Of a DNA stretch of 32,000 nt, positions 1-28,939 are shown one piece after another (position 1 is the first letter of the stretch; every line of letters begins with the position of its first letter). The notes under the pieces were generated by a model that saw nothing but the letters and a program-made list of their open reading frames with translations, was not told where the DNA came from and ran no database searches. The DNA lies in NCBI RefSeq assembly GCF_029504745.1, contig NZ_JAQFIQ010000002.1, positions 30,001 through 62,000 on the forward strand, given 5' to 3'. A program made the translations under genes and the position numbers. This stretch comes from Breznakia sp. PF5-3 (GTDB taxonomy: Bacteria > Bacillota_I > Bacilli_A > Erysipelotrichales > Erysipelotrichaceae).

Positions 1-662
1 TGTTAGTTTTATCAAAAGGTCATGCTGGACCTGGATGGTATAGTACCCTTGCTAATGTAGGGTTTATTGAAAAAGAGATGTTATATACATTAAATGATGG
101 TGGAACAAAACTTCCATCTCACCCAGATAGAACGAAAACTCCTGGTGTCGATATGACAACTGGTTCTTTAGGACAAGGAACTTCTGCAGCTGCAGGCATT
201 GCAACAGGTTTTAGAATGAAAAAATCTGATCAAAATGTGTATTTGATTGTTGGAGATGGTGAACTTAATGAAGGGCAATGTTGGGAAGCATTCCAATATA
301 TTGCACATAATAAATTAAATAATTGTATCGTTTTAATTGATGATAATAAAAAGCAATTAGATGGACCAACATGTGAGATTTGTAATCCATTTAATATTGC
401 TGATAAGATGCGTGCTTTTGGATTCAAAACATATGAAGTTAAAGGTGATGATGAAGAAGCGATTAGCAATGCAATCGATTTGTGTAAAAGTGAGAAAGAT
501 TGTGCAGTATGTATCGTTCTTGATTCAATTAAAGGACAGGGAGTACCATTCTTTGAAGAGATGGATGCAAACCACTCTGTAAAATTTAACACTGATGAAA
601 TCCTTAATGCTACACATGAAGCAATTGAAAAATTAGAAGCATTTGTTAAGGAGGGTGAATAA
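1..662 (+). CDS. Transketolase, N-terminal (TPP-binding) subunit; 5' end outside the window
   Basis: The frame is open from the window edge (from nt 3: LVLSKGHAGPGWYSTLANVGF...) into track ORF 78..662. It carries GDGELNEGQCWEA and LIDDNKKQLDG motifs typical of split transketolase N-subunits. The C-subunit gene starts 2 nt after the stop. Confidence 0.9.
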   Translation, partial: LVLSKGHAGPGWYSTLANVGFIEKEMLYTLNDGGTKLPSHPDRTKTPGVDMTTGSLGQGTSAAAGIATGFRMKKSDQNVYLIVGDGELNEGQCWEAFQYIAHNKLNNCIVLIDDNKKQLDGPTCEICNPFNIADKMRAFGFKTYEVKGDDEEAISNAIDLCKSEKDCAVCIVLDSIKGQGVPFFEEMDANHSVKFNTDEILNATHEAIEKLEAFVKEGE

Positions 663-664
663 TA

Positions 665-1618
665 ATGTTTACATTAGATAGAGAAAATAAAGAGATTAAA
701 GAATTAAAGTTAGCAGTTGTTGAAACCCTTCAAGATATGATGAAAACAAATGATAAAGTTGTTGCTCTTGAAGCCGATTTAGGTGGAGCTAGTGGGTTTT
801 CAAAAATTCAAAAAACAAATCCTGATCGTTTTATAAATGTTGGGATTGCGGAAGCTAATATGGTTGGTGTTGCAGCTGGATTGAGCGTAACTGGCTTTGT
901 TCCATTTATGCATACTTTCGGACCATTTGCATCAAGACGTGTATTTGATCAAGTATTCTTATCAGGTGCTTATGCACACACAACAATGAATATTTATGGA
1001 TCAGATCCTGGATTTACAGTTGGGCCAAATGGTGGAACACATACAACATGGGAAGATGTAGCACTTATGCGTACAATTCCTAATGCAGTTGTTTGTGATG
1101 CTGCTGATTATGTTCAATTGGAATGGATTACTCGTGAATTTGTGAAAATGGAAGGAATCCATTATGTTAGAGCAAACCGTAAAGGTGTAAGAAACGTATA
1201 TAAAGAAGGTTCTACTTTTGAAATCGGAAAAGGAAATATTCTTAAAGAAGGTAAAGATGTATTATTAATTGCAGCTGGACAATTAGTGTCAGATGCATTA
1301 GATGCAGCGGAAGCACTTGAAAAAGAAGGTATTTCTGTAGAGGTTGTTGATATGTTTACTATCAAGCCTATTGATGCTGATTTGATTCTAAAAGAAGTTA
1401 CTGGTAAAAAAGCGGTTGTAACATTTGAAAACCATTCGATTACGGGAGGTTTAGGAAGTGCTGTAGCTGAAGTACTATCAGATAATGCAATTGGAGTAAA
1501 ACTAAAACGTGTAGGTGTAAATGAATTATTTGGACAAGTAGGAACACCAGATTTCCTACAAAAAGAATTTAAACTTACCGCAGATGATTTAGTAAAAGAT
1601 ATCAAAGAAGCTTTATAA
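665..1618 (+). CDS. Transketolase, C-terminal (pyrimidine-binding/C-terminal domain) subunit
   Basis: 317 aa. GIAEANMVGVAAGLS, GPNGGTHTTWEDVALMR and VTFENHSITGGLGSAVAE are characteristic of split transketolase C-subunits. SD AAGGAGGG sits about 8 nt upstream of ATG 665. Confidence 0.92.
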   Translation: MFTLDRENKEIKELKLAVVETLQDMMKTNDKVVALEADLGGASGFSKIQKTNPDRFINVGIAEANMVGVAAGLSVTGFVPFMHTFGPFASRRVFDQVFLSGAYAHTTMNIYGSDPGFTVGPNGGTHTTWEDVALMRTIPNAVVCDAADYVQLEWITREFVKMEGIHYVRANRKGVRNVYKEGSTFEIGKGNILKEGKDVLLIAAGQLVSDALDAAEALEKEGISVEVVDMFTIKPIDADLILKEVTGKKAVVTFENHSITGGLGSAVAEVLSDNAIGVKLKRVGVNELFGQVGTPDFLQKEFKLTADDLVKDIKEAL

Positions 1619-1626
1619 GAGATAAG

Positions 1627-1656
1627 CATTGTAGTGAAAACTACAGTGTTTTTTTT
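1627..1656 (+). terminator. Rho-independent terminator after the transketolase genes
   Basis: Stem CATTGTAGT (1627-1635) pairs with ACTACAGTG (1640-1648): 9 bp including one G-U. The loop is GAAA and a T8 run follows (1649-1656). Confidence 0.8.
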
Positions 1657-1676
1657 GTGGAAAAAGTGATAAAAAA

Positions 1677-1711
1677 CATAGGTTGTTACATAGGTGATGT
1701 AACAACCTATG
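1677..1711. repeat. Perfect 15-bp inverted repeat with a 5-nt spacer (operator or second hairpin/terminator)
   Basis: CATAGGTTGTTACAT (1677-1691), AGGTG, ATGTAACAACCTATG (1697-1711) are exact reverse complements. CTATTTTGT follows. The element lies between the tkt terminator and the WGR operon. Confidence 0.7.
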
Positions 1712-1831
1712 CTATTTTGTATGTAATGTCTATAAGCAAAGAAAAAATGGGAACCAAAAGAAAGTCCACAGCGTCTAAGTTTATAGATGACCTATATATG
1801 ATTATACATACTCTAGAAAGGAAAAATAAAA

Positions 1832-5245: not shown

Positions 5246-5261
5246 AAAGGACGAGTGAAGG

Positions 5262-8144: not shown

Positions 8145-8162
8145 AGTCCTATAATTAGATAA

Positions 8163-8197
8163 GAGTACGATAGTGAAAACTATGGTGCTCTTTTTTT
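8163..8197 (+). terminator. Rho-independent terminator after the WGR pair
   Basis: GAGTACGATAGT (8163-8174) pairs with ACTATGGTGCTC (8179-8190): 12 positions with one mismatch and one G-U. The loop is GAAA and a T7 run follows (8191-8197). Confidence 0.75.
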
Positions 8198-8227
8198 GAA
8201 TGAAAATGATAGATTTATTTTTATTTG

Positions 8228-8236
8228 TGCTATACT
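8228..8236 (+). promoter_or_regulatory. Candidate extended -10 promoter element for the first DeoR gene
   Basis: TGcTATACT matches the TGnTATAAT pattern, 27 nt upstream of ATG 8263. There is no good -35. Confidence 0.35.
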
Positions 8237-8262
8237 GTCAATATATTGAAAAGAGGTATTTT

Positions 8263-9018
8263 ATGCTTGCTAGTGAAAGATTTATATTTATTTTAGATCA
8301 ACTTGATCGTGAAGGGGTGGTTACTTTAAAAACCGTTTGTGAACAATTGAATGCTTCTGAATCAACGATTCGTCGTGATTTTGAAGAATTGGAAAAACAA
8401 AATAAGTTAAAGCGAGTTCATGGAGGGGCTGTTAAGGTTAGCTTGGGAACAACCCTTACGGATAGTAAAGAAATGTCAATGCAACAAAAGAGTCAAATTA
8501 ATATTGAAGGAAAACAAAAGATTTGTCGCTATTGTGCACAAATGGTTCAAGATGGAGAGTGTATTTTTATTGATGGTGGAACGACATTAATGTATTTAAT
8601 AGATTATCTTGAGGGGAAACGTGTGAAAATCGTGACCAATAATCACTTTGTTGTTACCAAACAAGGAAGTACAATCGAGTTGATTAATATTGGTGGTCAT
8701 TATTTACCTAATTTGCATATGACGGTAGGATCTATAGCTTTGCAAACCTTGGAGATGTTTAATTTTGATTATGCTTTTATCGGTTGTGCTGGAATTGATA
8801 TCAGCGAGAATATCGCTTATACTGCCGAGATGGATAGTGCGCAAATTAAAAAAGCTGCAATGAACCAAGCACTGAAGTCTTATTTGTTAGTCGATTCCAC
8901 AAAGATGGATTTAAGAGGGTTTTATAAGTTTAGTGATATTAAACGATTTGATAGTGTGATTATGGATGATTATGATTCGAATCGCAAGAAACCAACATAT
9001 ATTACAGTTGTTGAATAA
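8263..9018 (+). CDS. DeoR-family transcriptional regulator
   Basis: The N-terminal HTH is LKTVCEQLNASESTIRRDFEELEKQNKLKRVHGGA. The C-terminal DeoR sugar-phosphate-sensor-type domain carries IFIDGGTT and FIGCAGID. I moved the start from track 8200 to ATG 8263, which has AAGAGG 6 nt upstream; the longer form would run through the promoter region. Confidence 0.88.
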   Translation: MLASERFIFILDQLDREGVVTLKTVCEQLNASESTIRRDFEELEKQNKLKRVHGGAVKVSLGTTLTDSKEMSMQQKSQINIEGKQKICRYCAQMVQDGECIFIDGGTTLMYLIDYLEGKRVKIVTNNHFVVTKQGSTIELINIGGHYLPNLHMTVGSIALQTLEMFNFDYAFIGCAGIDISENIAYTAEMDSAQIKKAAMNQALKSYLLVDSTKMDLRGFYKFSDIKRFDSVIMDDYDSNRKKPTYITVVE

Positions 9019-9021
9019 GAT

Positions 9022-9055
9022 AGTTTTTGAATGTTAATGAAAGTTTTTGAACGTT
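9022..9055 (+). promoter_or_regulatory. Tandem direct repeat AGTTTTTGAAYGTT x2 (candidate DeoR operator)
   Basis: AGTTTTTGAATGTT (9022-9035) and AGTTTTTGAACGTT (9042-9055) are 20 nt apart start to start. They abut the -35 of the aldolase promoter. Confidence 0.55.
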
Positions 9056-9059
9056 TTTA

Positions 9060-9088
9060 TTGACATTCTTTTTTTGTTTGCTTATACT
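9060..9088 (+). promoter_or_regulatory. Sigma-A-type promoter of the DeoC-like aldolase gene
   Basis: TTGACA (9060-9065), a 17-nt spacer, then TATACT (9083-9088). AGGAGG (9101-9106) lies 8 nt before GTG 9115. Confidence 0.7.
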
Positions 9089-9114
9089 GTAATTAGAAAG
9101 AGGAGGTACGATTT

Positions 9115-9855
9115 GTGAAACCTGCAAAAAAAGCAATTGAAATGAGTCAAAAGGAATTGGCTCGCTATATTGATCAATCAGTATTAAAACCTGAATTTAC
9201 TGTTGAAGAAGCGAAAAAATATATCCAAGAAGGAATTGATTATGGATGTGCAACAGTATGTGTAAATCCTGTAAATGTTGAAACGGCAGCGAAAATGTGT
9301 AAAGGAACGGATACAAAAGTTTGTCCAGTTTGTGACTTCCCATTTGGAACAAGTACTACAGAATCTAAAGTAGCACAAGCAGAACTTATTTTAAGTAAGT
9401 TTGCGGATGATATTTTAGAGTTGGATATTGTATCTAACTTTGGTTGGATTCGCAGTGGAATGTGGGATGAAGTAACAGCAGACATTAAAGCGGTAGCAGA
9501 TGTTTGTCATAAATATAATGTTGAAATGAAAGTTATCTTCGAAACAGATGCGTTGACAATGGATGAAGTTAAAAAAGCTTGTGAATGTGCTGTTGAAGCT
9601 GGGGCTGATTTTGTGAAAACAAGCACAGGGTTCTTGACTGGACATGATGCACAAGGAGCAAGTGTTGAAGTTATCAAAGTAATGTTTGATGCAGTTGATG
9701 GTAAAGCAAAAGTAAAAGGAAGTGGATGTATTCGTACAAGAGAGCATTTCCTTCAACTAATTGATATGGGGATTGACCGTATGGGTATTGGTTATCGTTC
9801 AACACCAGTTGTTTTAGGTGTCGATGGGAGTAAAGAGACAAAAGACGTTTATTAA
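9115..9855 (+). CDS. DeoC/DERA-family class I aldolase (deoxyribose-phosphate aldolase-like)
   Basis: 246 aa with a GTG start behind a strong SD. Motifs are YIDQSVLKP, ATVCVNP, CDFPFGTS, MKVIFET and the Schiff-base lysine context ADFVKTSTGF, all typical of the DeoC family. Confidence 0.85.
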   Translation: MKPAKKAIEMSQKELARYIDQSVLKPEFTVEEAKKYIQEGIDYGCATVCVNPVNVETAAKMCKGTDTKVCPVCDFPFGTSTTESKVAQAELILSKFADDILELDIVSNFGWIRSGMWDEVTADIKAVADVCHKYNVEMKVIFETDALTMDEVKKACECAVEAGADFVKTSTGFLTGHDAQGASVEVIKVMFDAVDGKAKVKGSGCIRTREHFLQLIDMGIDRMGIGYRSTPVVLGVDGSKETKDVY

Positions 9856-9877
9856 AAGTGCAGGTATGCACTTTTTT
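9854..9877 (+). terminator. Rho-independent terminator/attenuator between the aldolase and GRE genes
   Basis: AAAAGTGCA (9854-9862), loop GGTA, TGCACTTTT (9867-9875), with the T-run continuing to 9877. It starts within the stop codon. Confidence 0.65.
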
Positions 9878-9892
9878 AACAAGGCAAATAGA

Positions 9893-9921
9893 TTGCTAGT
9901 TTTAGAATAACTATATAGAAT
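9893..9921 (+). promoter_or_regulatory. Candidate sigma-A promoter of the glycyl-radical enzyme gene
   Basis: TTGCTA (9893-9898), a 17-nt spacer, then TAGAAT (9916-9921). The spacer contains AGTTTTAGAAT (9898-9908), a 10/11 match to the repeats at 9022 and 9042. Confidence 0.55.
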
Positions 9922-9950
9922 TAAGATGAGAGATAGTGGAGATTTGACTT

Positions 9951-12368
9951 ATGAAAAAAATGTTAGAGTACCAAGTTAAAAGTGATTGTATTGATGAAGC
10001 AAGAATTGCTCGGTTGCAACATAAAATGGAAAAGCGAAAAGCGTCTATTTGTAGTGAACGTGCTTTGTTGTATACAGAAAGTTTTCAAAAAAGTGAAACA
10101 GAACCTTATATTATTCGTAAGGCGAAAGCATTTGCACATACATTGGACCTTATGAGTATCTATATAGAAGAAGATAGTTTGATTTTTGGGAATCAAGCTT
10201 CTCGAAACTTTGCAGCACCAATTTTTCCAGAATATTCTATTGATTGGGTAATTGATGAATTGGATGCGTTTGCTTTACGTAAAGGTGATGTCTTTACCAT
10301 TGATGAGCAAACAAAAAAGGATTTACGGAGTATTCATGATTATTGGCATTCTCATACTCATGAAGACGAAGTGAAGAAGAATTTGCCTGAAGAAAATTTC
10401 TTGGCTGAAAAGCAAGGTGTATTACATCGTGGTGGTATCTCGATGAGTGGAGATGGGCATATTGTGCCTAAGCACGAAAAAGTCTTAGAAGTTGGCTTTT
10501 TGGGATTGATTGAAGAAGCTCAAACAAAGCTTGAAGTTTGTAAAGATAAAGAGAAAATAGCATTTTATAATGCTGTAATTATTACTTTGAACGCTTCTTT
10601 ACGTTGGATTAAACGTTATGGATTGTTAGCTGTGGATATGGCGAAAACATGTAATGATGAGAAACGTAAAGCGGAACTCTATAAGATTGCAGATATGTGT
10701 GAACATTTGTTGGAACGAAAAGCTAATGGTTTTTATGAAGCTGTAGAATCTGTATATTTGATACATGTCTTACAAATGATTGAAAGCAACGGGCATTCCT
10801 TTTGTTATGGTAGATTTGACCAATATATTTATCCATTTTATGAAGCTGACGTAGCAAGTGGTAAGTTAAATGATGATAAAGCATTGGAACTTATTACGCA
10901 TATGTTTTTAATGAATAGTTCATTAAATAAAGTTCGTCCATATGGACATACAAAGTTTTCACAAGGGTATCCATTATATTCGAATTTGATGATTGGTGGA
11001 TATCGTCGTGATGGAAAAGATGGAACTAATGCATTATCTTATTTGGCAATAGAAGCTATGAATTTAACTTCTTTAGCAGAACCAAATTTCTCTATGCGTT
11101 ACAATAATGACACACCAGATGACTTGCTTCGTTTAGCAGCGAAATTGATTCGTACGGGGTGTGGAATGCCAAGTATGTTTAATGATGAAGTGATTGTTAA
11201 AGCCAAAGAAGGACTTGGTATACCACATGAAGATGCTTTAGATTATGTAGCAATAGGTTGTGTAGAGACTGGAATTCCTGGTAAATACGGACATCGAGCA
11301 ACGGGTATGACCTATGTAAACTGGGGAAAAGTATTAGAAATTTTATTAAACAATGGCTATGATCCTGATTCAAAGTTGCGTTTAATTACCTTAGGTAATG
11401 AGAAAGAGACAATGGAGTCTTGCTTTGAAACCTATGATGATGTATGGACAGGTTGGAAGAAATTATTAAAATATTACACCGATTTAGCAGTTGCGTGTGA
11501 TCATGTTTGTGATCAATCATTAGCAAAATATGACGCTGATCCGTTTGCCTCTAGCCTAATTGATGATTGCTTAGAAAAAGGAAAAATTCTTAAATTAGGT
11601 GGTGCGAAATATGATATTGTATCACAATCTAATATAGGACCTAGTGTGGTTGGAAATTCTTTAGCAGTTCTTAAAAAGCTGGTCTTTGAAGAAAAGAAAA
11701 TAACATTACAAGCATTGAAAGATGCAATGAAAGATAATTGGGAATCGTTAGAATCAAAACGTATTCACCAAATGGTTACTCAAGTAGCAAAATTTGGTAA
11801 TGATGAGGATTATGTAGATGATATTGTTATTGATGTTTTCAATTCATATTTAGAACTTTTACCTGATTATAAGACGAATTGTTCAGATATGGGACCAGAT
11901 ATTAGTGGATACACTATGTCAACGTCCAATATCACATCTTATGTACCAAATGGTTTAGATGTCGGTGCCACACCAGATGGCAGATTTGCTAGAAGTCCAT
12001 TGAATGAAGGATGTTCACCAACGGAGGGAACAGATATAAAAGGACCTACGGCGGTTATTAATTCAGTGGCTAAATTGCCAAATGAAAGAATTGCAGCAGG
12101 TCAGCTATTGAATATGCGTTTTACACCAGAATCTTTAGAAGGCGCTAATTTAGAAAAGTTTATTGCCTTTTTAAAGGTGAGTAGGAAAAAAGAAATATAT
12201 CATAATCAATTTAATATCATCGATTCAACAACGTTACGCAAAGCGCAACAAAATCCTGAGAAGTATACAGATTTGATTGTACGTGTAGCAGGGTATTGCG
12301 CACAGTTTGTTTCATTGATGAGTGAAACACAAGATGCAATTATTAATCGCAGTGAAAATAGTATTTAG
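9951..12368 (+). CDS. Glycyl-radical enzyme, PFL2/dehydratase (eliminase)-type
   Basis: 805 aa. The C-terminal glycyl-radical fingerprint is LIVRVAGYCAQF (Gly781, nt 12291-12293). The thiyl-loop is IGCVETG with Cys437 and Glu439 (nt 11259-11267). The N-terminus (ICSERALLYTESFQKSETEPYIIRKAKAFAHTL...IFGNQAS) is typical of the PFL2/glycerol-dehydratase-like clade. Confidence 0.92.
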   Translation: MKKMLEYQVKSDCIDEARIARLQHKMEKRKASICSERALLYTESFQKSETEPYIIRKAKAFAHTLDLMSIYIEEDSLIFGNQASRNFAAPIFPEYSIDWVIDELDAFALRKGDVFTIDEQTKKDLRSIHDYWHSHTHEDEVKKNLPEENFLAEKQGVLHRGGISMSGDGHIVPKHEKVLEVGFLGLIEEAQTKLEVCKDKEKIAFYNAVIITLNASLRWIKRYGLLAVDMAKTCNDEKRKAELYKIADMCEHLLERKANGFYEAVESVYLIHVLQMIESNGHSFCYGRFDQYIYPFYEADVASGKLNDDKALELITHMFLMNSSLNKVRPYGHTKFSQGYPLYSNLMIGGYRRDGKDGTNALSYLAIEAMNLTSLAEPNFSMRYNNDTPDDLLRLAAKLIRTGCGMPSMFNDEVIVKAKEGLGIPHEDALDYVAIGCVETGIPGKYGHRATGMTYVNWGKVLEILLNNGYDPDSKLRLITLGNEKETMESCFETYDDVWTGWKKLLKYYTDLAVACDHVCDQSLAKYDADPFASSLIDDCLEKGKILKLGGAKYDIVSQSNIGPSVVGNSLAVLKKLVFEEKKITLQALKDAMKDNWESLESKRIHQMVTQVAKFGNDEDYVDDIVIDVFNSYLELLPDYKTNCSDMGPDISGYTMSTSNITSYVPNGLDVGATPDGRFARSPLNEGCSPTEGTDIKGPTAVINSVAKLPNERIAAGQLLNMRFTPESLEGANLEKFIAFLKVSRKKEIYHNQFNIIDSTTLRKAQQNPEKYTDLIVRVAGYCAQFVSLMSETQDAIINRSENSI

Positions 12369-12392
12369 TGGGAAATAATATAAAAGATTTGA

Positions 12393-12438
12393 AAAAAGTT
12401 GGGAAAAGAAAAGGATAAACTTAAAAAACCAACTTTTT
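12393..12438 (+). terminator. Candidate terminator after the GRE gene (long-loop hairpin)
   Basis: AAAAAGTTGG (12393-12402) pairs with CCAACTTTTT (12429-12438). The loop is 26 nt and A-rich, and the downstream sequence is T-rich (GTGCTTTTGTTT). The large loop makes this atypical. Confidence 0.4.
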
Positions 12439-12519
12439 GTGCTTTTGTTTGGGAAAAATGGTAGAATAAAGTTGAAAAAAGCCAATAAAATCTTATGATA
12501 AGGGAGAAAGGAATGTTGT

Positions 12520-13284
12520 ATGTCACAAAAAACAAGAAAACGTCGTGATGAAATAACTAAAATTGTGATTAGTGAAGGTCAGGTAAAAGTAAAGGAGTTA
12601 GCGAAACAGTTAAATGTTTCAACGGAGACGATTCGTAAAGACTTACATTATCTAGATATGATGGGGGTAATTAGTAAGTCTCATGGAGGAGCTTCAGTCA
12701 TTAATGAATATTTTCAATTACCAATTGATGTGAAATTACAAGAAAATTTGGATGCAAAGAAAAAGATTGCTCGAGCGGCTTTGGATTTGATTGAAGATAA
12801 TTCATTGATTTATTTGGATCCAGGAAGCACATGTATCCAAATTGCTAAGCTTTTACGTGTAAAACGAAATTTAACGGTTCTTACAAACTCTATAACGATT
12901 GCCAATATTGTGGCAGATAGTTCTCATAATGTGATTGTTTGTGGTGGGATGCTTCAAAAACGTGGAAAAGCATTAGTAGGTATCTATGCAATTGATGTTA
13001 TTAAAACGATTCACATTGATACAGCAATTATGGGTAGTGATGGATTTAAGGATATGAATGGGTTTACAACATTTTCTTTGGAAGAAGCAGAAATACGCAA
13101 GACGATTGTTAGTTCTAGTGATGTGAATATCGTAGTGTGTGATGCTTCAAAATTTAATAAAACTTCAACGTATATTTTTGGTAAATTTTCAGATTATGAT
13201 TATTTAGTTACAGATGAAGATGATGCCAAAAAATTAAAACAAGTAAGTGGTATTAAAAAAATTATTAGTGTAAGGAGCGAATAA
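12520..13284 (+). CDS. DeoR-family transcriptional regulator (second copy)
   Basis: The HTH is VKELAKQLNVSTETIRKDLHYLDMMGVISKSHGGA. The C-terminal DeoR effector domain carries IYLDPGSTC and AIMGSDGF. SD AAAGGA lies 8 nt upstream. Confidence 0.88.
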   Translation: MSQKTRKRRDEITKIVISEGQVKVKELAKQLNVSTETIRKDLHYLDMMGVISKSHGGASVINEYFQLPIDVKLQENLDAKKKIARAALDLIEDNSLIYLDPGSTCIQIAKLLRVKRNLTVLTNSITIANIVADSSHNVIVCGGMLQKRGKALVGIYAIDVIKTIHIDTAIMGSDGFKDMNGFTTFSLEEAEIRKTIVSSSDVNIVVCDASKFNKTSTYIFGKFSDYDYLVTDEDDAKKLKQVSGIKKIISVRSE

Positions 13285-13285
13285 G

Positions 13286-13912
13286 ATGAAATTACAAATT
13301 GCATTGGATACACTAACAATTGAAGAATGTATTATGTTGTTAGATGAAGTAAAAGACTATGTAGATATTATTGAGGTAGGAACTCCCTTTTTATTAGAAG
13401 AAGGAAATAAACCAGTTAAAATATTCAAGGAACGTTATCCACAATTGGAAGTATTAGCAGATACGAAGATTATGGATGCTGGTGAATATGAAGCAGAGGG
13501 AGCTTTTAAAGCAGGAGCGGATATTGTTACCGTACTTGGAGTAACAAATGATGCGACAATTGAAGGGGCTTTAAAGGCTGCGAAAAAGTATAATGGAAAA
13601 GTTATGATGGATATGATATGTGTGGCAGATATGGCAAAAAGAACCCAACAAATGGATGCTATGGGAGTTGATTATATTTGTTGTCATACAGCATTTGATA
13701 TACAAGAAACAGGAAAGAACCCACTTGATGAATTGGTGGTTATTAATCAGAATATTACCAATGCGAAATCAGCAGTAGCTGGTGGCGTAAAATTGGAAAC
13801 AATTGATGAAATCGTTGCTGAGGGAGCTGGCGTTATTGTTGTTGGTGGTGCAATTTCAAATGCTAAAGATCGAATTGCAATGGCGAAAGCAATCAAAGAA
13901 CATATGAAATAA
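13286..13912 (+). CDS. hxlA: 3-hexulose-6-phosphate synthase family (OMPDC superfamily; HPS/KGPDC-type)
   Basis: MKLQIALD...DIIEVGTPF...LADTKIMDAGEYEA...GADIVTVLG is the HPS/3-keto-L-gulonate-6-P decarboxylase fold signature. I prefer the HPS call because a PHI gene follows immediately. By eye I cannot exclude KGPDC-like specificity. Confidence 0.75.
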   Translation: MKLQIALDTLTIEECIMLLDEVKDYVDIIEVGTPFLLEEGNKPVKIFKERYPQLEVLADTKIMDAGEYEAEGAFKAGADIVTVLGVTNDATIEGALKAAKKYNGKVMMDMICVADMAKRTQQMDAMGVDYICCHTAFDIQETGKNPLDELVVINQNITNAKSAVAGGVKLETIDEIVAEGAGVIVVGGAISNAKDRIAMAKAIKEHMK

Positions 13913-13923
13913 GGAGATGCTAT

Positions 13924-14484
13924 ATGAATAATCAAGAGTATGGAAAGCTGGTAGTAGACGAATTATCGCAAACACTTGGTAGCATTTCTGTTGCTGCAGC
14001 AGAAAAGTTTGTTTCACTTATAAATGAAGCTGGTGAAGTGTTTTGTGCAGGTGCAGGGAGAAGTGGCTTTCAAGTAAAAGGATTTGCAATGCGTTTAATG
14101 CACATGGGATTTAAAAGTTATGTTGTTGGAGAAACGGTAACCCCAAATATCAAAGCAGATGGATTGCTTGTGATTTGTAGTGGTTCTGGGGAAACAAAAT
14201 CATTGGTAAATCATGCTCAAAAGGCAAAAGAGATGGGAGCAAAAATTGCTTTGATTACCACAAATGTAGATTCTTCTATTGGTAATATTGCTGATGTGGT
14301 AATTGAAATCAATACAGCATCGCCAAAGGTGGCGAAAGAAGATCAAATTATTTCACGTCAACCTATGGCATCATTATTTGAACAATCAGAAGGTATCTTT
14401 TTGGATGTTGCAATTATGATGTTAATGGACCTTCGTGGGATGGATGCCGTTACGATGTATGGCAGACATGCCAATATGGAATAG
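13924..14484 (+). CDS. hxlB: 6-phospho-3-hexuloisomerase (SIS domain)
   Basis: 186 aa. SIS motifs are VFCAGAGRSGF and LLVICSGSGETKS. The PHI-type C-terminus is QPMASLFEQS...RHANME. Confidence 0.82.
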   Translation: MNNQEYGKLVVDELSQTLGSISVAAAEKFVSLINEAGEVFCAGAGRSGFQVKGFAMRLMHMGFKSYVVGETVTPNIKADGLLVICSGSGETKSLVNHAQKAKEMGAKIALITTNVDSSIGNIADVVIEINTASPKVAKEDQIISRQPMASLFEQSEGIFLDVAIMMLMDLRGMDAVTMYGRHANME

Positions 14485-14488
14485 TGTT

Positions 14489-15433
14489 ATGGAAAAGAAA
14501 ATATTGAAAATATTTCCTTTCTTTGAACCTCGAATGTGGGGTGGGAAAAGGATGTTAGAGAATTTCAATTATCAGAGTGATATTTATCCAGTTGGAGAAG
14601 TATACAATGTTGTAGCATTAAAAAATCATGCTGATTGTTTAGTAAAAGATACGTGTATGACGCTTTCAGATTTATATATTACATATCCAGAATGGTTTAA
14701 ATGTGATACAAATGAGTTACCTATTCGAGTTAATATTTTAGATCCAGAAGCAGATTTATCAATTCAGCTTCATCCAGATGATGCCTTTGCACGCTCTTAT
14801 AATGGAGGCCGTGGAAAACCAGAGGCTTGGGTTATTTTGGATGCTCCAGAAGATGGATATATTGCGTTTGGACATACAGCAAAGACACGAGATGAGTTTG
14901 AACAAAAAGTTGGAAATAAAGAATTTGATTCGTTGATTAAGTATATTGATGTAGTTGTAGATGATTATATTGATATTCCTTGTGGTACGATTCATGCAAT
15001 TGGAAAAGATGTATTGACGTATAATATCTCTCGTAATGCAGATTGTACACTACGGGTTTATGATTATGATCGTCTTGACCCAGCAACGGGTAAGACAAGA
15101 GATCTACAAGTAGAAGAAGTTATTAAAAATGTAAACATTCCTGATAAGTCAAAAGGGTTTGTTCATTATCCTGAAATAGAACAAGATGGTTGTCTTGTAA
15201 CATCGTATTGGGATGAACCAGGATTGTATACATTGAAACGTATTCGTGTCAAAGAACATGGATATCATCAACATCAAAGGTTTGCTTTTTATACGATTGT
15301 AGAAGGTGAAGCAAAAATTAATGATGTAGTAGTAAGAAAAGGAGAAACTATATTTGTGCCAGATCAATTTGGGCTTCTTGAAATTACAGGTGATGTAGAT
15401 ATGTTTATGGCAAGTTACGAAAATAGCAAGTAG
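14489..15433 (+). CDS. manA: Class I mannose-6-phosphate isomerase (paralogue 1)
   Basis: The Firmicute ~315-aa PMI pattern is present: FEPRMWGG, LSIQLHP, KPEAWVILDA, GTIHAIG, RVYDYDR. I moved the start from track 8 codons... from track 14435 to ATG 14489 (MEKKILKIFP...), which begins 5 nt after the PHI stop; the longer form overlaps the PHI gene. Confidence 0.85.
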   Translation: MEKKILKIFPFFEPRMWGGKRMLENFNYQSDIYPVGEVYNVVALKNHADCLVKDTCMTLSDLYITYPEWFKCDTNELPIRVNILDPEADLSIQLHPDDAFARSYNGGRGKPEAWVILDAPEDGYIAFGHTAKTRDEFEQKVGNKEFDSLIKYIDVVVDDYIDIPCGTIHAIGKDVLTYNISRNADCTLRVYDYDRLDPATGKTRDLQVEEVIKNVNIPDKSKGFVHYPEIEQDGCLVTSYWDEPGLYTLKRIRVKEHGYHQHQRFAFYTIVEGEAKINDVVVRKGETIFVPDQFGLLEITGDVDMFMASYENSK

Positions 15434-15484
15434 AGGGAATTATGAATCAAAATGAAAGAAGGCAGTATAAGTAATATGAGAAAC

Positions 15485-15507
15485 ACCATATCAATAGATA
15501 TGGTTTT
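15485..15507 (+). terminator. Candidate terminator/attenuator hairpin between PMI-1 and the MFS gene
   Basis: ACCATATC (15485-15492), loop AATA, GATATGGT (15497-15504), then TTTC. The T-run is short and I see no obvious promoter before the MFS gene, so read-through is likely. Confidence 0.4.
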
Positions 15508-15531
15508 CGTGTGTAAGGGAGGCCAAGCTTT

Positions 15532-16680
15532 ATGAAAATCACGAAAAATATGGGAATGATGTTTGTATTGTATTTTATTTCTTTTATCTCGTTTGCAATA
15601 CCATATGCGTATATGCAAACCTTCTTATCCTATGTTGGATATGATGTACTCGAAAGAGGAATTATTTTATCTGGGACAGCAATCGTTGCAATTGTAGCAC
15701 AGTTTTTTATTGGTTACCTTTGTGATAAGTATCAAAGTGATAAAAAGTTTTATAATATTCTGTTGATTATTTTTGTTGTTGTGACCTATGTAATGTACAG
15801 TGTTACAGATAAGATTTTCTTTTTGCATTTAATATTTATTTCCTTAGTTGGAGGGATTGCTAGAACTGTAATGGCAGTACAGGATACGTGGTGTTTAGAA
15901 ACCGATAATCATTGTATGCGAAACTATGGAGCAATTCGTGCTTTTGGAGCCATTGGATGGATGATTGGAAGTCCTCTTGGCGCAATGGCGATTGAGAAGT
16001 GGGGATATGGTTCTTTAGGAATTATTTTTGCAGTTATGACGGTTTTTAATATTGGTCTTACATTCTTTATGCAAGATGCTAAGAAACATGAAAAAAGTGT
16101 AGGTATTACAGCGAGTGATATAAAAACGTTATTAACGGATAAGAAATATGTACTCATTGTTTTGATTTTTTTGGTAATCAATATTATCGCAACAGCAGAT
16201 ATGTATACTGTAGTTGATAAAATGCTTGCCCTTGGTGCTGGTGAGGGAATGATTGGAGCTAGGTGGTCCATTCAGGCATTTACAGAATTACCATTGTTTT
16301 TTGCTGGTGGATATCTACTGAAAAAATTTGGTGACTATCGAATTATGATGTTTGGTACCTTTATGTATATTGTTCGCTTTATTGGGTATGCAATTGTTCA
16401 AACACCAGAACTTATGATAGCCGTAGCACTGCTTCAATGTGTTACATATCCACTCATTATGATTACCTCAAAAACGCTTGTTGATGATGCAAGTCCAGCG
16501 CATATGCGTGCTACTGGTCAAACCATTGCAAGTGCTATATATATTGGTGTTTCTGCACTTATTACACCAATCTTAGCGGGGTTACTGACAACTCTATTTA
16601 GTGTGGATACAACGCTTATGATTATTGGGCTGTCAGGTTTTATTTCAATTGCTTTAGGTATCGTTTATAAAAGGATATAA
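15532..16680 (+). CDS. MFS-type transporter
   Basis: 382 aa and almost entirely hydrophobic helices (roughly 11-12 segments by eye), with short basic loops. SD AAGGGAGG lies ~9 nt upstream. Confidence 0.75.
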   Translation: MKITKNMGMMFVLYFISFISFAIPYAYMQTFLSYVGYDVLERGIILSGTAIVAIVAQFFIGYLCDKYQSDKKFYNILLIIFVVVTYVMYSVTDKIFFLHLIFISLVGGIARTVMAVQDTWCLETDNHCMRNYGAIRAFGAIGWMIGSPLGAMAIEKWGYGSLGIIFAVMTVFNIGLTFFMQDAKKHEKSVGITASDIKTLLTDKKYVLIVLIFLVINIIATADMYTVVDKMLALGAGEGMIGARWSIQAFTELPLFFAGGYLLKKFGDYRIMMFGTFMYIVRFIGYAIVQTPELMIAVALLQCVTYPLIMITSKTLVDDASPAHMRATGQTIASAIYIGVSALITPILAGLLTTLFSVDTTLMIIGLSGFISIALGIVYKRI

Positions 16681-16740
16681 TTTTATAATATTTGCGGTAT
16701 AATATAAGTAAATTGTTTGAATAAAGAAAAGAGGTATTGT

Positions 16741-21340: not shown

Positions 21341-21769
21341 GTGATGAAATATGTAGTAATGGTAAGCCATGGTGAGTTTGCACCAGGGTTGCATACGGCA
21401 GTGAACATGATGACAGGTGAGAGAGAAGATGTATTGAGTACAAGCCTGAAAGATGGTATGGGTACGCCAGAGTTTATTGAAAATTTTAAAGCTTTGATAG
21501 AACCAATCAAAGCAGAAGATGAAATTATTTTACTTGCAGATATTTTGAGCGGATCTCCATTTACTAGTGCTTTAGGAGTACTTGATGAAAAAGGAATGAT
21601 GGAGAAAACAACTGTATTTGCAGGAATGAATATGCCACTTGCAGTTTCAGCAGTTTTGATGAAAGACAACATGGATGGCGATATTCTTAAAGAAAGTTTA
21701 TTATCTGAAGGTAAAACAGGATTGTGTATTTTTGAAGCTCCTGTTGAAGATTCAGATGATGATATTTAA
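21341..21769 (+). CDS. PTS mannose/fructose/sorbose-family EIIA component
   Basis: KYVVMVSHGEFAPG gives the phospho-His context of EIIA-Man. The C-terminus is acidic. The start is GTG 21341 (GAGG 7 nt upstream) or ATG 21344. Confidence 0.85.
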   Translation: MMKYVVMVSHGEFAPGLHTAVNMMTGEREDVLSTSLKDGMGTPEFIENFKALIEPIKAEDEIILLADILSGSPFTSALGVLDEKGMMEKTTVFAGMNMPLAVSAVLMKDNMDGDILKESLLSEGKTGLCIFEAPVEDSDDDI

Positions 21770-21792
21770 TTATCAATAGGAGGACTTTAAAG

Positions 21793-22284
21793 ATGATTAG
21801 TTTTGTGAGAGTAGATGACCGTATCATCCACGGTCAAATCGTAACCCGTTGGTCAAAGGAATTTCCTTGTGATGGAATTGTTGCAGTGAATGATAAAGCT
21901 GCTAGTACACCAATTTTAAAACAATCGTTCCAAGCATCAACAGATAAAAAAGTATTTATTTGGACATATGAAGAATGGAAGCAAAAAAATCAAAAAGTGT
22001 TGGATAGTGATAAGAAATATTTCTTAATCACGAAAAATCCAGTAGATATGGCAAGAATCTTAGTAGATGATGGATTCAAACCAAGTGATGTGAAAAGAGT
22101 GGTAATTGGACCATGTAACGATCGCCCAGGAGCGGTTAAGTTGGGACAAAACCAATCGATTACAAAAGAAGAAGCAGAAGCATGTGAAAAGATGACAAAT
22201 GCAGGGTATGATGTATACTTCGCATTGTTAGAAGAAACGGCAATTGGATCTTGGCCAAAATTTAGATCTAAATTCGGATACTAA
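21793..22284 (+). CDS. PTS mannose-family EIIB component
   Basis: MISFVRVDDRIIHGQIVTRW is the canonical EIIB-Man/Sor N-terminus with the phospho-His. SD AGGAGG lies upstream. Confidence 0.9.
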   Translation: MISFVRVDDRIIHGQIVTRWSKEFPCDGIVAVNDKAASTPILKQSFQASTDKKVFIWTYEEWKQKNQKVLDSDKKYFLITKNPVDMARILVDDGFKPSDVKRVVIGPCNDRPGAVKLGQNQSITKEEAEACEKMTNAGYDVYFALLEETAIGSWPKFRSKFGY

Positions 22285-22309
22285 AAAGTATCAAACCAAC
22301 ATTGGTCTA

Positions 22310-22348
22310 TATTTGAACTGCTGGTATTTGGGAAATCAGGTTCAAATA
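22310..22348 (+). promoter_or_regulatory. Intra-operon hairpin between the EIIB and EIIC genes
   Basis: TATTTGAAC (22310-22318) pairs with GTTCAAATA (22340-22348), an exact 9 bp. Further pairing is possible inside the 21-nt loop (CTG..ATTT with AAAT..CAG). No T-run follows. Confidence 0.35.
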
Positions 22349-22391
22349 AGGATATATTAAATTTAAAAATTTAAGAAAAGGAGATGAGTTT

Positions 22392-23222
22392 ATGATTAGT
22401 TGGGTACAAGCTGGTCTATTAGCATTAATGGGTGTGCTAGCTGCTTCTACTATTGCAGCATTAGGTACATCAATTGGTAACTATACATTGAATAGACCAT
22501 TAATTGCATCACTGTTCGTAGGATTAATCTTAGGAGACGTTGAAGGATGTATTCAAATTGCAGTTCCAATGCAAATTATCTACATCGCACTTGTTACACC
22601 TGGTGGAACAGTTGCAGCGGACTTACGTGCCGTATCGTATATTGGTATCCCGTTAGCCTGGGCAATGGCTAAGTCTCAAGGATGGGACATGGGAGGATCA
22701 GAGGCATCAGCATTTGCGGGAGCAATTGGGGCTGCCGTAGGTACTGTCGGTACAGTTCAATTCTATGGAACAGCGATGATGAATCTTATTTGGCAACACA
22801 TTGGATGGGCTAGATTGGATAAAGGAGATTTCAAAATTTTAGGTAAAGTAGAAGTTGTGTTACCTTTGATTTCTCACTTCGTTATTTCATTCTTACCAGT
22901 TATGTTTATCGTATATTATGGAGCAGATGCAATTGCAGATTTCAAGGAAGCATTGCCAATGGATAGTTGGTATATGAAATCACTATTTACAGTGGGATCA
23001 TTATTACCAGCGGTGGGAATTGCAATCCTATTGAAATCAGTAGTAACAAAAACTTCAGATTTAGTATACTTTGCAGCAGGATTTGCACTTGCTAAGTCAA
23101 TGGGATTAACACTATTGGCAGCAACAGCTGTTGGTGGAGTGTTCGCACTTATCAACTACCAAATTACAATGGTAAAAGCAAAGGCTGGTACTGTAGCAGT
23201 CGATGACGAGGAGGACATTTAA
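22392..23222 (+). CDS. PTS mannose-family EIIC component
   Basis: 276 aa, polytopic and hydrophobic. Position in the A-B-C-D gene order and size fit EIIC-Man. SD AAGGAG lies upstream. Confidence 0.85.
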   Translation: MISWVQAGLLALMGVLAASTIAALGTSIGNYTLNRPLIASLFVGLILGDVEGCIQIAVPMQIIYIALVTPGGTVAADLRAVSYIGIPLAWAMAKSQGWDMGGSEASAFAGAIGAAVGTVGTVQFYGTAMMNLIWQHIGWARLDKGDFKILGKVEVVLPLISHFVISFLPVMFIVYYGADAIADFKEALPMDSWYMKSLFTVGSLLPAVGIAILLKSVVTKTSDLVYFAAGFALAKSMGLTLLAATAVGGVFALINYQITMVKAKAGTVAVDDEEDI

Positions 23223-23224
23223 TT

Positions 23225-24055
23225 ATGAAAAAGATAAGTAAAAAATCATTAAATAGTTCTTTCTGGCGCTGGTATTATGGAAACTTAACATGTTTCTCAC
23301 ATGAGCATATGCAAACATTTGGATACATGTGGTCAATGTTACCAATCATCCAAGAATTATATGAAACAAAAGAAGAACAACAACAAAAATTACAAACTTA
23401 CTACCCATTCTTTAATACAGAACCTCAAATTGGGGCAATCGTAGTAGGGATTACAGCAGGGTTAGAAGAAGCGAGAGCAAACGGAGCAGAAGAAATTGAT
23501 GACGAAATGATCAATGGTATTCGTGCCGGACTAATGGGACCATTAGCAGGGATTGGGGATTCACTGATCGTAGGAACATACATTCCAGTATTGTTAGGGA
23601 TCGCATTAGGATTTGCAGAAGGTGGTTCAGTATTAGGACCATTATTCTATATCGTAGTATGGAACGTAACAATCTTATGGTTCATGAGATTTATCTACTT
23701 CAAAGGATATGAATTAGGTGGATCAGCAGTAGAAGTAATCGTAGGAGAACAAGCGACAGCATTCCGTGAGTCAGTAATTGTACTAGGACAAGTAATTGTA
23801 GGGGCAATGGCTGCATCATGGGTAAACATTACAACAGCAATCGAATTGACAAAAGATGGAGACGGAAACCCAATCTTATTGCAAGATAAGTTAGATGGAG
23901 CATTCCCAGGAATCTTAACTATGTTATTCGTATTAGGAGCATGGTGGCTAATGGCGAAGAAAGCAGTTAGTCCAATTAAAGTAATGTTGCTAATGGTAAT
24001 CTTGGCATTTATTGGAGTATTCTTTGGATTCTTCGATCCAAAATTAAGTTATTAA
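23225..24055 (+). CDS. PTS mannose-family EIID component
   Basis: The N-terminus LNSSFWRWYYGNLTCFSHEHMQTFGYMWSMLPII matches the conserved EIID opening (FWRS...N.ERMQ..G...S..P). The gene starts 2 nt after EIIC. Confidence 0.88.
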   Translation: MKKISKKSLNSSFWRWYYGNLTCFSHEHMQTFGYMWSMLPIIQELYETKEEQQQKLQTYYPFFNTEPQIGAIVVGITAGLEEARANGAEEIDDEMINGIRAGLMGPLAGIGDSLIVGTYIPVLLGIALGFAEGGSVLGPLFYIVVWNVTILWFMRFIYFKGYELGGSAVEVIVGEQATAFRESVIVLGQVIVGAMAASWVNITTAIELTKDGDGNPILLQDKLDGAFPGILTMLFVLGAWWLMAKKAVSPIKVMLLMVILAFIGVFFGFFDPKLSY

Positions 24056-27286: not shown

Positions 27287-27287
27287 T

Positions 27288-27974: not shown

Positions 27975-27977
27975 ATA

Positions 27978-28856: not shown

Positions 28857-28939
28857 TCGAAAATCCTCACTTTCACCCATTCATTATATCATTATATGAA
28901 GTAAAATATGATGATATTTGTCATTATTTTAAATATTAG

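Follow-up and report, generated by a model that had tools for sequence, protein, structure and literature searches.

The stretch of DNA considered here, a 32-kb window from Breznakia sp. PF5-3 (Erysipelotrichaceae) with a G+C content of ∼33% and nearly all genes on the plus strand, contains three consecutive genes coding for a DeoR-family regulator, a class I aldolase of the DeoC type, related to deoxyribose-5-phosphate aldolases (DERAs), and a glycyl-radical enzyme, hereafter GRE-A (Table 1). The true start of the regulator gene is at position 8263, with AAGAGG 7 nt upstream, and the aldolase reading frame opens with GTG behind the ribosome-binding site GAGGAGG. An earlier note, written from the letters of the sequence, had described this arrangement, and its assignments are borne out by profile models: the regulator matches HTH_DeoR and DeoRC, the aldolase directly downstream matches Pfam DeoC and TIGR00126, and the radical enzyme of 805 amino acids (aa) matches the PFL-like (PF02901, 622.6 bits) and Gly_radical (PF01228, 97.5 bits) domains, with the fingerprint RVAGY at residues 778–782 (Gly781) and the loop GCVE at residues 436–439 (Cys437 and Glu439). 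The three genes probably form a DeoR-controlled catabolic module, a general logic in which we place reasonable confidence.

GRE-A matches none of the characterised glycyl-radical enzymes closely. It carries a single Cys in the Cys-x-Glu loop of eliminases and isomerases, and not the Cys-Cys of pyruvate formate-lyase (PFL), which agrees with the earlier note's view of an eliminase-type enzyme. NCBI annotates the identical protein as ‘pyruvate formate-lyase/glycerol dehydratase family glycyl radical enzyme’, and the only NCBIfam model passed is the broad TIGR01774 ‘PFL2-3’ subfamily (724 bits versus a cut-off of 678). Membership in the PflD-type, HpfG, HpsG, HypD, CutC, indoleacetate/HPA decarboxylase or PFL families was rejected, as no equivalog model was passed; the best score, 542 bits with the PflD-type NF007437, falls short of its cut-off of 1109. 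Among solved structures the ranking is headed by YbiW (561–567 bits), followed by glycerol dehydratase (GDH; 1r8w, 536 bits), propanediol dehydratase (499 bits), an unnamed ‘glycyl radical protein’ (9rco, 471 bits) and PflD (445–453 bits); none is closer than ∼38% identity, and assignment to the family of any characterised structure was accordingly discarded. YbiW and PflD of E. coli are 1,5-anhydroglucitol-6-phosphate and 1,5-anhydromannitol-6-phosphate C–O lyases that act together with the aldolases FsaA/FsaB in ‘anhydroglycolysis’ (Ma et al. 2024, summarised in PMC13450708), a precedent that the earlier note had correctly named, with action on anhydrohexitol-6-phosphates followed by cleavage by fructose-6-phosphate aldolase (FSA)-type enzymes. 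Identities of the window enzyme amount to 37.7% with YbiW, 35.8% with PflD and 38.3% with GDH (YbiW and PflD from E. coli K-12, the GDH sequence rebuilt from a printed alignment), and these three are 37–38% identical to one another. GRE-A is thus as far from each of them as they are from each other, and therefore matches no characterised family.

Forty relatives (35 from a scan of GTDB species representatives and five from protein look-ups) are 58–80% identical and form one tight, monophyletic branch in a neighbour-joining tree. The phylogenetic placement that the earlier note had proposed as a check hence yields no clustering with a characterised clade, identities to YbiW, PflD and GDH being 36–38%, and GRE-A is by these comparisons a separate, uncharacterised clade of the same rank as YbiW, PflD and the B12-independent glycerol dehydratase. 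Carriers include Clostridium innocuum, Holdemanella, Faecalibaculum, Hungatella, Enterococcus and Klebsiella, and several 90%-identity clusters contain hundreds of sequences; no DNA-level homologue of the Klebsiella copy was found in 5,426 E. coli genomes.

The segments GGISMSGDGH, ESNGHSFC-GRFDQ, QGYPLY, IGCVEtG-PGKYGHR-TGMTY, SQSNIGP and YTMSTSNITSYvPNG are nearly invariant in the clade, and GCVE is invariant. Since these active-site segments hardly vary, the alignment argues for a single substrate specificity, that is, for one substrate used by the whole clade. Residues corresponding to His164, Ser282 and Tyr339 of GDH are kept; the general-acid His lies in SGDGH, which aligns with NGVGH164 of 1r8w and with SGDAH of YbiW. 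Asp447 of GDH is replaced by Gly (in TGMTY) with a one-residue insertion, as in YbiW, and the loop before ATPDGR has the length found in YbiW. The variable position of GGA-(K/R)-YD is basic in GRE-A as well as in YbiW (Lys) and PflD (Arg), and is Glu in glycerol and Ile in propanediol dehydratase, a pattern that is likely compatible with a phosphorylated substrate. For the YbiW and PflD structures, the available review gives only the Cys/Glu contacts (PMC13450708).

The aldolase passes the deoC equivalog model TIGR00126, and its top solved relatives are DERAs (146 bits to Lactobacillus brevis DERA). It keeps the catalytic Asp/Lys/Lys in ELDIV, FVKTSTGF (with the Schiff-base Lys) and KVKGSG, and is ∼33–39% identical to the canonical DERAs with which it was compared, namely those of E. 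coli and L. brevis and the paralogues at loci L033, L037 and L131 (L numbers are our designations for loci and contigs). It nevertheless belongs to a subfamily with signatures of its own: DFPFG for GFPLG, SGCIR for SGGIR, the motif N(Y/F)GxIRSG, a 4-residue insert right after KTSTGF, and RMG(V/I)GY(K/R)S, with a conserved basic residue, in place of the Gly-x-Ser-Ser segment. The canonical phosphate-binding loops are not matched, and the altered motifs are found in all members of the subfamily. In the E. coli DERA structure, the phosphate site is presumably formed by the GG in β7, the Gly-x-Ser-Ser in β8 and the loop following STGF. The altered loops would then be those of the phosphate site, and the pocket for the acceptor or phosphate seems to have been remodelled. 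A related Breznakia strain encodes a DERA paralogue of the canonical type (232 aa, 33% identical to the window aldolase, with DHTLL, GFPLG, KAAGGIR and RIGTRSS) at positions 12132–12830 of L131, ∼1 kb past the point corresponding to the 3′ end of the window, so that the gene beside the radical enzyme is to be seen as a specialised paralogue. This canonical gene comes after the gene for a 579-aa protein, lying at 29546–31285 in the window and lacking a Pfam match, and is flanked by a GntR regulator gene before it and an NAD-dependent epimerase gene after it.

GRE-A is evolutionarily coupled to the DERA-like aldolase. Reference proteins from Pfam-annotated loci served as a panel for mapping the neighbours at each of the 40 loci; 34 loci remained after removal of near-duplicates, and 24 were well flanked, with at least 2.5 kb on both sides. 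A DeoC of the same subfamily, 55–76% identical to that of the window, lies within 10 kb in 25 of the 34 non-redundant loci. Among the well-flanked loci it is present in 18, and in 12 it is directly upstream on the same strand at a distance of <300 bp; several loci have only 1–5 bp between the two genes. The earlier note had made conservation of this adjacency a test of its proposal, and the adjacency is indeed conserved. The pairing spans Erysipelotrichia, Clostridia, Negativicutes, Enterococcus and Klebsiella and holds although gene orders and regulators differ, so that functional coupling is well supported. In Klebsiella huaxiensis the order is mannose-family phosphotransferase system (PTS) ABCD, activase, GRE, GntR, DeoC, transaldolase, transketolase and DUF218; in Lacrimispora/Hungatella, GntR, DeoC, FSA, DUF218, mannose-family PTS, GRE, activase, DeoR and transketolase; and in Alkalibaculum, RpiR, DUF218, DeoC, GRE, activase, DeoR and mannose-family PTS. 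Pelosinus has a glucitol PTS, an Fe-type alcohol dehydrogenase, two HAD proteins, DeoC (on the opposite strand), RpiR, GRE, activase, FSA, RpiB, a Zn-type alcohol dehydrogenase, a further FSA and transketolase, and Enterococcus has RpiR, GRE, activase, DeoR, HAD, mannose-family PTS, DeoC, FSA and triosephosphate isomerase (TIM). Faecalibaculum and many other Erysipelotrichaceae possess bare DeoC–GRE pairs amid unrelated genes (RNase R, EF-G).

A further arrangement is seen in loci of the L030 type. There, one strand encodes, in this order, DeoR, 3-hexulose-6-phosphate synthase (HxlA), 6-phospho-3-hexuloisomerase (HxlB), a URO-D-family methyltransferase, CobW, DUF1638, a corrinoid protein, a second URO-D protein, the RACo activator, DeoC, GRE-A, an activase, a second radical enzyme (GRE-B) and an activase. 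The set spans positions ∼1000–16700 in each of these Erysipelotrichaceae loci; the second radical enzyme is seen where the locus extends far enough, and its activase in four loci. Its identification as PFL was ruled out, as GCGE and RVGGF mark it as a member of another eliminase-type clade. Of the 24 well-flanked loci, 7 have HxlA/HxlB close to the module, and these genes stand in line with it on the same strand in L030, L032, L033, L035, L036 and L038, which correspond to four non-redundant loci (L032/L038 merged as duplicates). A URO-D gene also follows the PTS in Alkalibaculum. The corrinoid/URO-D genes hint at O-methylated substrates or at one-carbon handling.

The earlier note had also described the enzyme as lacking an activase, which holds for the window and its flanks. 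When all six frames of the window were scanned, none of the stop-to-stop segments with a length of 60 aa or more contained CxxxCxxC, nor was an open reading frame with this motif found in another 8.3 kb of the contig on the upstream side (L130) or in ∼10 kb past the 3′ end in a closely related strain (L131), both extensions having been reached by looking up flanking proteins. As a trait of the system the description does not stand, since a radical-SAM activase with CxxxCxxC adjoins GRE-A in 14 of the 24 well-flanked loci. The loci in which no activase lies within 10 kb (19 of 40) are nearly all from Erysipelotrichales, which points to a habit of this lineage and not of the system as a whole. 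Among relatives with long contigs, the closest one (L124) encodes an activase 10 kb upstream of the DeoC/GRE-A pair, beside a further radical enzyme, a true YbiW orthologue with 50% identity to the E. coli protein and the motif GKWGYRCTGMS. The YbiW orthologue, the activase and a HAD phosphatase occupy positions 7422–10882 of this contig, and a GatZ/KbaZ-like gene, a lactose-type PTS, GH1 and LacA/LacB lie between them and the DeoC/GRE-A pair. As YbiW and GRE-A co-exist in one genome, they are not functional duplicates. In Erysipelotrichales GRE-A probably relies on an activase that also serves, or belongs to, another radical enzyme; when the activase from L124 was used as the query of a protein search, none of the best 120 matches carried a Breznakia label.

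The view from the aldolase is different. When metagenome contigs were scanned with the aldolase, only 2 (L069 and L118) of the 80 closest relatives, which are 62–84% identical, adjoined GRE-A. The earlier note's pairing of the two enzymes holds from the side of GRE-A and needs correcting on that of the aldolase. Other relatives adjoin further radical enzymes and their activases. Those of GRE-B (L050, L055, L059 and L062; motifs GCGE and RV(S/G)GF) are 47–59% identical to one another and to the second radical enzyme of the L030-type loci, and are often accompanied by a NanE-like epimerase, DUF218 and transketolase; a GCIE clade, GRE-C, stands beside the aldolase in L065. Both are 25–29% identical to the window enzyme, share the glycine motif RVSGF and have as closest solved structure the function-unknown Archaeoglobus PFL2 (2f3o). 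Aldolase relatives also adjoin a Khk-like PfkB kinase in five lineages, and others sugar ABC transporters, GH2 or transketolase–RpiB; one (L054) lies beside the phosphopentomutase gene deoB (579 bits). The aldolase signature was therefore rejected as specific for radical-enzyme partners, the same motifs occurring beside deoB, kinases or nothing relevant. The subfamily is a shared downstream enzyme of at least three eliminase-type radical clades and of kinases, not one dedicated to GRE-A. That two more radical clades pair with the same subfamily implies that several radical enzymes may funnel into one class of aldolase substrate; such wide partnering weakens exclusivity and, at the same time, suggests all the more that radical enzymes feed the DERA-like aldolase.

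Three further observations concern these neighbourhoods. The PfkB kinase (L097 6708–7808; L072 1109–2248; L065 10345–11349; L121; L045/L046) belongs to the new Pfam family ‘prokaryotic ketohexokinase’ (PF25270) and matches no NCBIfam equivalog. DUF218 (YdcF/SanA-like) recurs in GRE-A and GRE-B modules of unrelated taxa (L002 17569–18348; L009 6434–7315; L012 6318–7109; L127 7803–8564; L047, L050, L052 and L055) and may be a pathway component. In E. coli K-12, the DUF3029 protein YjjI and the putative glycyl-radical activase YjjW are encoded divergently beside deoC (4,615,000–4,618,102; L043 1–3103), which may be either a coincidence or another pairing of a radical enzyme with DERA.

Signals for local expression were also looked at. 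The two 13-nt repeats GTTTTTGAAYGTT are separated by 7 nt, have no further exact copy in the window and lie directly upstream of the −35 box of the promoter-like sequence preceding the aldolase gene; from their position they are a plausible operator for DeoR. The promoter-like sequence is the top-scoring site between 8000 and 13400. A hairpin with a U-run between the aldolase and radical-enzyme genes is possibly a weak terminator or a processing site, and a weak promoter-like site follows it. The hairpin behind the radical-enzyme gene likely marks the end of the transcription unit, with another promoter-like site (12472–12499) downstream of it. Co-transcription of the aldolase and the radical enzyme in the window is likely but not certain.

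Table 1. Features of the 32-kb window, in order of position
Feature	Position	Strand	Evidence
Split transketolase: N part cut by window start, plus C part	78..1618	+	Pfam
DeoR-family regulator, likely local repressor	8263..9018	+	Pfam DeoRC 143.7 bits, HTH_DeoR 56.2 bits
Two exact 13-nt direct repeats, candidate DeoR operator	9023–9035, 9043–9055	+	GTTTTTGAAYGTT, 7 nt apart
Sigma-70-like promoter TTGACA-17-TATACT before aldolase gene	9060..9088	+	11/12 consensus positions; consensus match only
DeoC/DERA-type class I aldolase, distinct subfamily	9115..9855	+	Pfam DeoC; TIGR00126 185.6 bits (cut-off 117.3)
9-bp hairpin and U-run between aldolase and radical enzyme	9854..9875	+	−10.2 kcal/mol, z = −3.1 versus shuffles
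Glycyl-radical enzyme GRE-A, 805 aa	9951..12368	+	Cys437, Glu439, Gly781
Weak hairpin and T-run after radical-enzyme gene	12393..12438	+	−11.1 kcal/mol, z = −1.9
Second DeoR, HxlA, HxlB, MPI-like cupin, MFS transporter; possibly module-associated	12520..16680	+	
Mannose-family PTS EIIA/B/C/D, possible supplier of phosphorylated substrate	21341..24055	+	Pfam
Transaldolase-family protein, 353 aa	24641..25702	+	Pfam TAL_FSA 125.2 bits

The wider region is rich in genes of sugar metabolism that the earlier note had missed. The second DeoR gene (12520–13284; HTH_DeoR and DeoRC) begins 151 bp past the radical enzyme and heads an operon with HxlA (TIGR03128, 266.6 bits, cut-off 200) and HxlB (TIGR03127, 223.7 bits, cut-off 160). 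Besides these and the transketolase and transaldolase genes, the window encodes a ribulose-phosphate-3-epimerase-family protein and a second HxlB-like SIS protein; together with a ‘Branch’ (core-2/I-branching) glycosyltransferase-family protein, the latter two make up the sole minus-strand block (26723–28880). A cupin-type glucose-6-phosphate isomerase is encoded on the plus strand at 28989–29546, and Alkalibaculum has one behind its PTS genes as well. Shortly before the start of the window, as the contig sequence L130 shows, a galactitol-family PTS immediately precedes the split transketolase. Between these genes and the DeoR–DeoC–GRE module lie two paralogous large proteins (1137 and 960 aa, at 1832–5245 and 5262–8144), each with an N-terminal WGR domain and a DUF6138 region, a pair that resembles an insertion into a sugar-utilisation cluster.

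Clues to the substrate come mainly from transporters and regulators. A mannose-family PTS stands directly beside the enzyme in six lineages; these systems are 57–72% identical to each other and to the PTS of the window, whose IIB and IID components are 57–64% identical to those of the enzyme-adjacent PTS of Klebsiella, Lachnospiraceae, Hungatella and Enterococcus. The Pelosinus locus has a glucitol PTS, and a galactitol-family PTS directly follows the enzyme in L010 and lies nearby in C. innocuum. The regulators at the clade loci are of the DeoR, GntR/UTRA and RpiR types, which usually sense phosphosugars. Taken with the basic residue of GGA-K/R-YD, the PTS neighbours and the regulator types make it likely that the substrate of GRE-A is phosphorylated. 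Further recurrent neighbours are transketolase, RpiB, alcohol dehydrogenases, aldo-keto reductase, Cof-type HAD phosphatases, transaldolase/FSA (in 8 of the 24 well-flanked loci), GH1 phospho-β-glycosidases (in 5 of the 24), a TIM paralogue (L020) and DhaKL (L010).

On these grounds, the chemistry that we would favour, which like that suggested in the earlier note would lead through a deoxy-carbonyl compound, is a radical 1,2-dehydration of an alditol phosphate followed by DERA-type cleavage, a proposal made tentatively and with somewhat less than even confidence. A PTS would deliver the phosphorylated polyol, and a radical-SAM activase encoded elsewhere in the genome would activate the enzyme. 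The Cys437 thiyl radical would abstract a hydrogen atom from C1, the carbinol carbon of a terminal 1,2-diol; Glu439 would deprotonate the C1 hydroxyl, and the conserved His at the position of GDH His164 would protonate the leaving C2 hydroxyl. Return of the hydrogen atom would give a 2-deoxyaldose phosphate in a net redox-neutral dehydration, the same chemistry by which glycerol dehydratase forms 3-hydroxypropanal (‘2-deoxyglyceraldehyde’). The DeoC-type aldolase, via its Schiff-base Lys, would then split the product into acetaldehyde and a shorter aldose phosphate. In the preferred case, a pentitol-5-phosphate would be converted into 2-deoxyribose-5-phosphate and then into acetaldehyde and glyceraldehyde-3-phosphate. 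This version appears the most economical because the aldolase scores as deoC, one member of the subfamily lies by deoB, and a two-gene module suffices; mannose- and galactitol-type PTS are known carriers of pentitols. In the main alternative, a hexitol-6-phosphate would yield 2-deoxyhexose-6-phosphate and then acetaldehyde and erythrose-4-phosphate, which would enter the transketolase/transaldolase reactions. With the hexitol version, the DeoC–transaldolase–transketolase and RpiB/TIM neighbours would be better explained, as would the glucitol PTS and the remodelling of the phosphate site. In either case, acetaldehyde would serve as an electron sink, and over-reduced polyols would become usable without the extra NADH of the dehydrogenase route.

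A number of observations speak against alditol-phosphate dehydration. In YGHRxTGMTY, the stretch behind the Cys loop, and in its longer loops, GRE-A looks like the ring-opening isomerase YbiW and not like glycerol dehydratase, and the mannose-type PTS usually carry pyranose-like sugars, so that an anhydro- or deoxy-hexose would suit them more than a polyol with an open chain. Given its remodelled phosphate site and the canonical paralogue, the aldolase may act on a substrate other than deoxyribose-5-phosphate. The intergenic hairpin and the weak promoter-like site leave co-transcription uncertain, loci of the C. innocuum type consist of the enzyme, an activase and a GH1 phospho-β-glucosidase with no aldolase nearby, and the rarity of GRE-A beside the closest aldolase relatives counts on the same side. 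HxlA/HxlB and, in some relatives, the corrinoid methyltransferase set near the module fit no model convincingly, and the proposed chemistry itself rests on homology and gene context. Some of these points would be accommodated if GRE-A were a ring-opening C–O lyase (isomerase) like YbiW and PflD, acting on a different anhydro- or deoxy-sugar 6-phosphate supplied by the mannose-type PTS, with DeoC doing the job of FSA in a Firmicute variant of ‘anhydroglycolysis’. No solved structure scores better than that of YbiW; the post-Cys-loop motif and loop lengths are common to both enzymes; the mannose-family PTS adjoins the enzyme in six lineages; FSA-like genes adjoin DeoC in L012/L128, L020 and Pelosinus; and HAD sugar phosphatases are present, like YbiV in E. 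coli. However, a YbiW-type product would be a 1-deoxy-2-ketose with a 3-hydroxyl, the cleavage of which needs a hydroxyacetone donor, and no DERA-type aldolase is known to use one. FSA occurs in only 8 of the 24 loci as against 18 for DeoC, the dedicated transketolase and transaldolase would be left without a role, and a genuine YbiW orthologue co-exists with GRE-A in one genome. We consider this explanation a serious contender, albeit rather unlikely.

The aldolase might, alternatively, be an ordinary DERA of nucleoside or deoxyribose catabolism, next to a radical enzyme acting on an unrelated substrate. The deoC equivalog model is passed, 78 of the 80 metagenomic aldolase loci are without GRE-A and one is beside deoB, and in C. 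innocuum, L013, L019, L022, L037 and L040 there is no aldolase near the enzyme. Yet the adjacency survives rearrangements in five bacterial classes and with three regulator types, with 1–5 bp spacing in several loci; a nucleoside phosphorylase or phosphopentomutase was found in none of the 40 clade loci, and a canonical-type DERA paralogue co-exists in the related strain, L033 and L037, all of which render mere neighbourhood improbable. Another reading retains the coupling and changes the substrate: a small unphosphorylated diol (glycerol or an aglycone released by GH1) would be dehydrated and the aldolase would split the 3-hydroxyaldehyde into acetaldehyde and formaldehyde, the latter being assimilated by HxlA/HxlB or by transketolase, FSA and dihydroxyacetone kinase. 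The 38% identity to glycerol dehydratase and the conserved His/Ser/Tyr/Glu/Cys set are consistent with this, as are the minimal DeoC/GRE pairs of many Erysipelotrichaceae without a nearby transporter or kinase, the existence of GH1–GRE–activase operons, DhaKL in L010 and the TIM paralogue in L020; moreover, with HxlA/HxlB, transketolase, transaldolase and a ribulose-phosphate-epimerase-family gene, the window holds most of a ribulose-monophosphate-type set. We nonetheless judge it distinctly improbable: the enzyme does not have Asp447 of GDH, and the loops that form its pocket have the greater length seen in sugar-phosphate enzymes; the regulators are of phosphosugar-sensing types and PTS are adjacent; a basic residue is conserved in the remodelled phosphate loop of the aldolase; no 1,3-propanediol dehydrogenase context was seen; and the release of formaldehyde is costly to the cell. 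Finally, the enzyme could be a non-functional orphan in this genome for want of an activase, given that no open reading frame with CxxxCxxC was found in ∼50 kb around the gene and no Breznakia-labelled activase among the best 120 matches. The reading frame is intact, however, with all catalytic motifs and clade-invariant segments; other loci, nearly all in Erysipelotrichales, keep the gene without a local activase; and a relative has one 10 kb away beside its YbiW-type paralogue. Loss of function is, in our opinion, very improbable indeed.

With alditol-phosphate dehydration as the favoured chemistry, the data point to an undescribed two-step route, present in many gut bacteria, from a phosphorylated sugar alcohol or similar compound to acetaldehyde and a glycolytic intermediate. 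The function-unknown families that are most abundant in anaerobic gut microbiomes include the glycyl-radical enzymes, and newly assigned clades (choline, hydroxyproline, isethionate, anhydroglucitol) have each revealed a host-relevant nutrient route. GRE-A, a common clade with a conserved two-enzyme logic and a proposed chemistry, is experimentally tractable. If it is a polyol-phosphate dehydratase, this would explain how fermenters handle over-reduced sugar alcohols such as dietary sweeteners and plant polyols, and would add a radical route to deoxy-sugars other than that of ribonucleotide reductase, as well as a function for a distinct DERA subfamily of possible biocatalytic use. If it is an anhydro-sugar lyase instead, the ‘anhydroglycolysis’ described in 2024 would extend to Firmicutes with a different class of aldolase. 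One may speculate, with a good deal of reserve and conscious that it is rather unlikely to hold in every part, that GRE-A is the first alditol-phosphate dehydratase among glycyl-radical enzymes, making a free 2-deoxyaldose phosphate directly from a polyol phosphate and, with at least two other radical clades, feeding one dedicated DERA-like subfamily. Were this true, a whole family of radical ‘deoxy-sugar’ fermentations would be widespread among gut Firmicutes and would circumvent the polyol dehydrogenase step with its production of NADH.

Full-text literature searches, with subscription-only papers outside their scope, found no published pathway combining a glycyl-radical enzyme with DERA. 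A superfamily review of June 2026 lists YbiW, PflD and HplG as the only ‘isomerase’ members and does not mention deoxyribose, pentitols or DERA (PMC13450708). With the glycerol dehydratase DhaB1 of Clostridium butyricum (1r8w; 38% identity) and with propanediol dehydratase, GRE-A shares the equivalents of Cys, Glu, His164, Ser282 and Tyr339, but it differs in the Gly replacing Asp447 with its one-residue insertion, in longer substrate-site loops and in the basic residue of GGA-x-Y(D/N). Its context of PTS and sugar-phosphate regulators also contrasts with theirs, there being no 1,3-propanediol dehydrogenase, DhaT-type or microcompartment context. The aldolase, for its part, is a TIM-barrel class I enzyme with the Schiff-base Lys, Asp and second Lys of the DERAs covered by TIGR00126, whereas the phosphate loops of its subfamily differ and it occurs together with radical enzymes, PfkB kinases and transketolase, not with nucleoside phosphorylases. 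Firmicute routes for pentitol and hexitol phosphates employ a mannose-type PTS for ribitol (Lactobacillus casei) and a galactitol-type PTS for D-arabitol and xylitol, followed by NAD+-dependent oxidation of the polyol phosphate. The GRE-A loci resemble them in their PTS families (mannose, galactitol, glucitol) and pentose-phosphate-pathway genes, but have no consistent polyol-phosphate dehydrogenase, the radical enzyme and the aldolase standing in its stead. The closest parallel is offered by YbiW and PflD, which have in common with GRE-A the PFL-like enzyme with its Cys-x-Glu loop, the motif after the Cys loop (YbiW), a sugar phosphate likely supplied by a PTS, an aldolase gene next door and, in many GRE-A loci, a HAD sugar phosphatase and a dedicated activase. 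The differences lie in the identity of only 36–38% and the separate branch, in the transketolase, transaldolase and RpiB that often accompany GRE-A, and in the aldolase, which is of the DERA type as opposed to their FSA type, a distinction that the earlier note had drawn. By analogy, the GRE-A pair may thus work like YbiW/PflD and FSA, with a radical C–O step on a sugar phosphate followed by an aldolase, while standing outside those families and drawing on another aldolase class.

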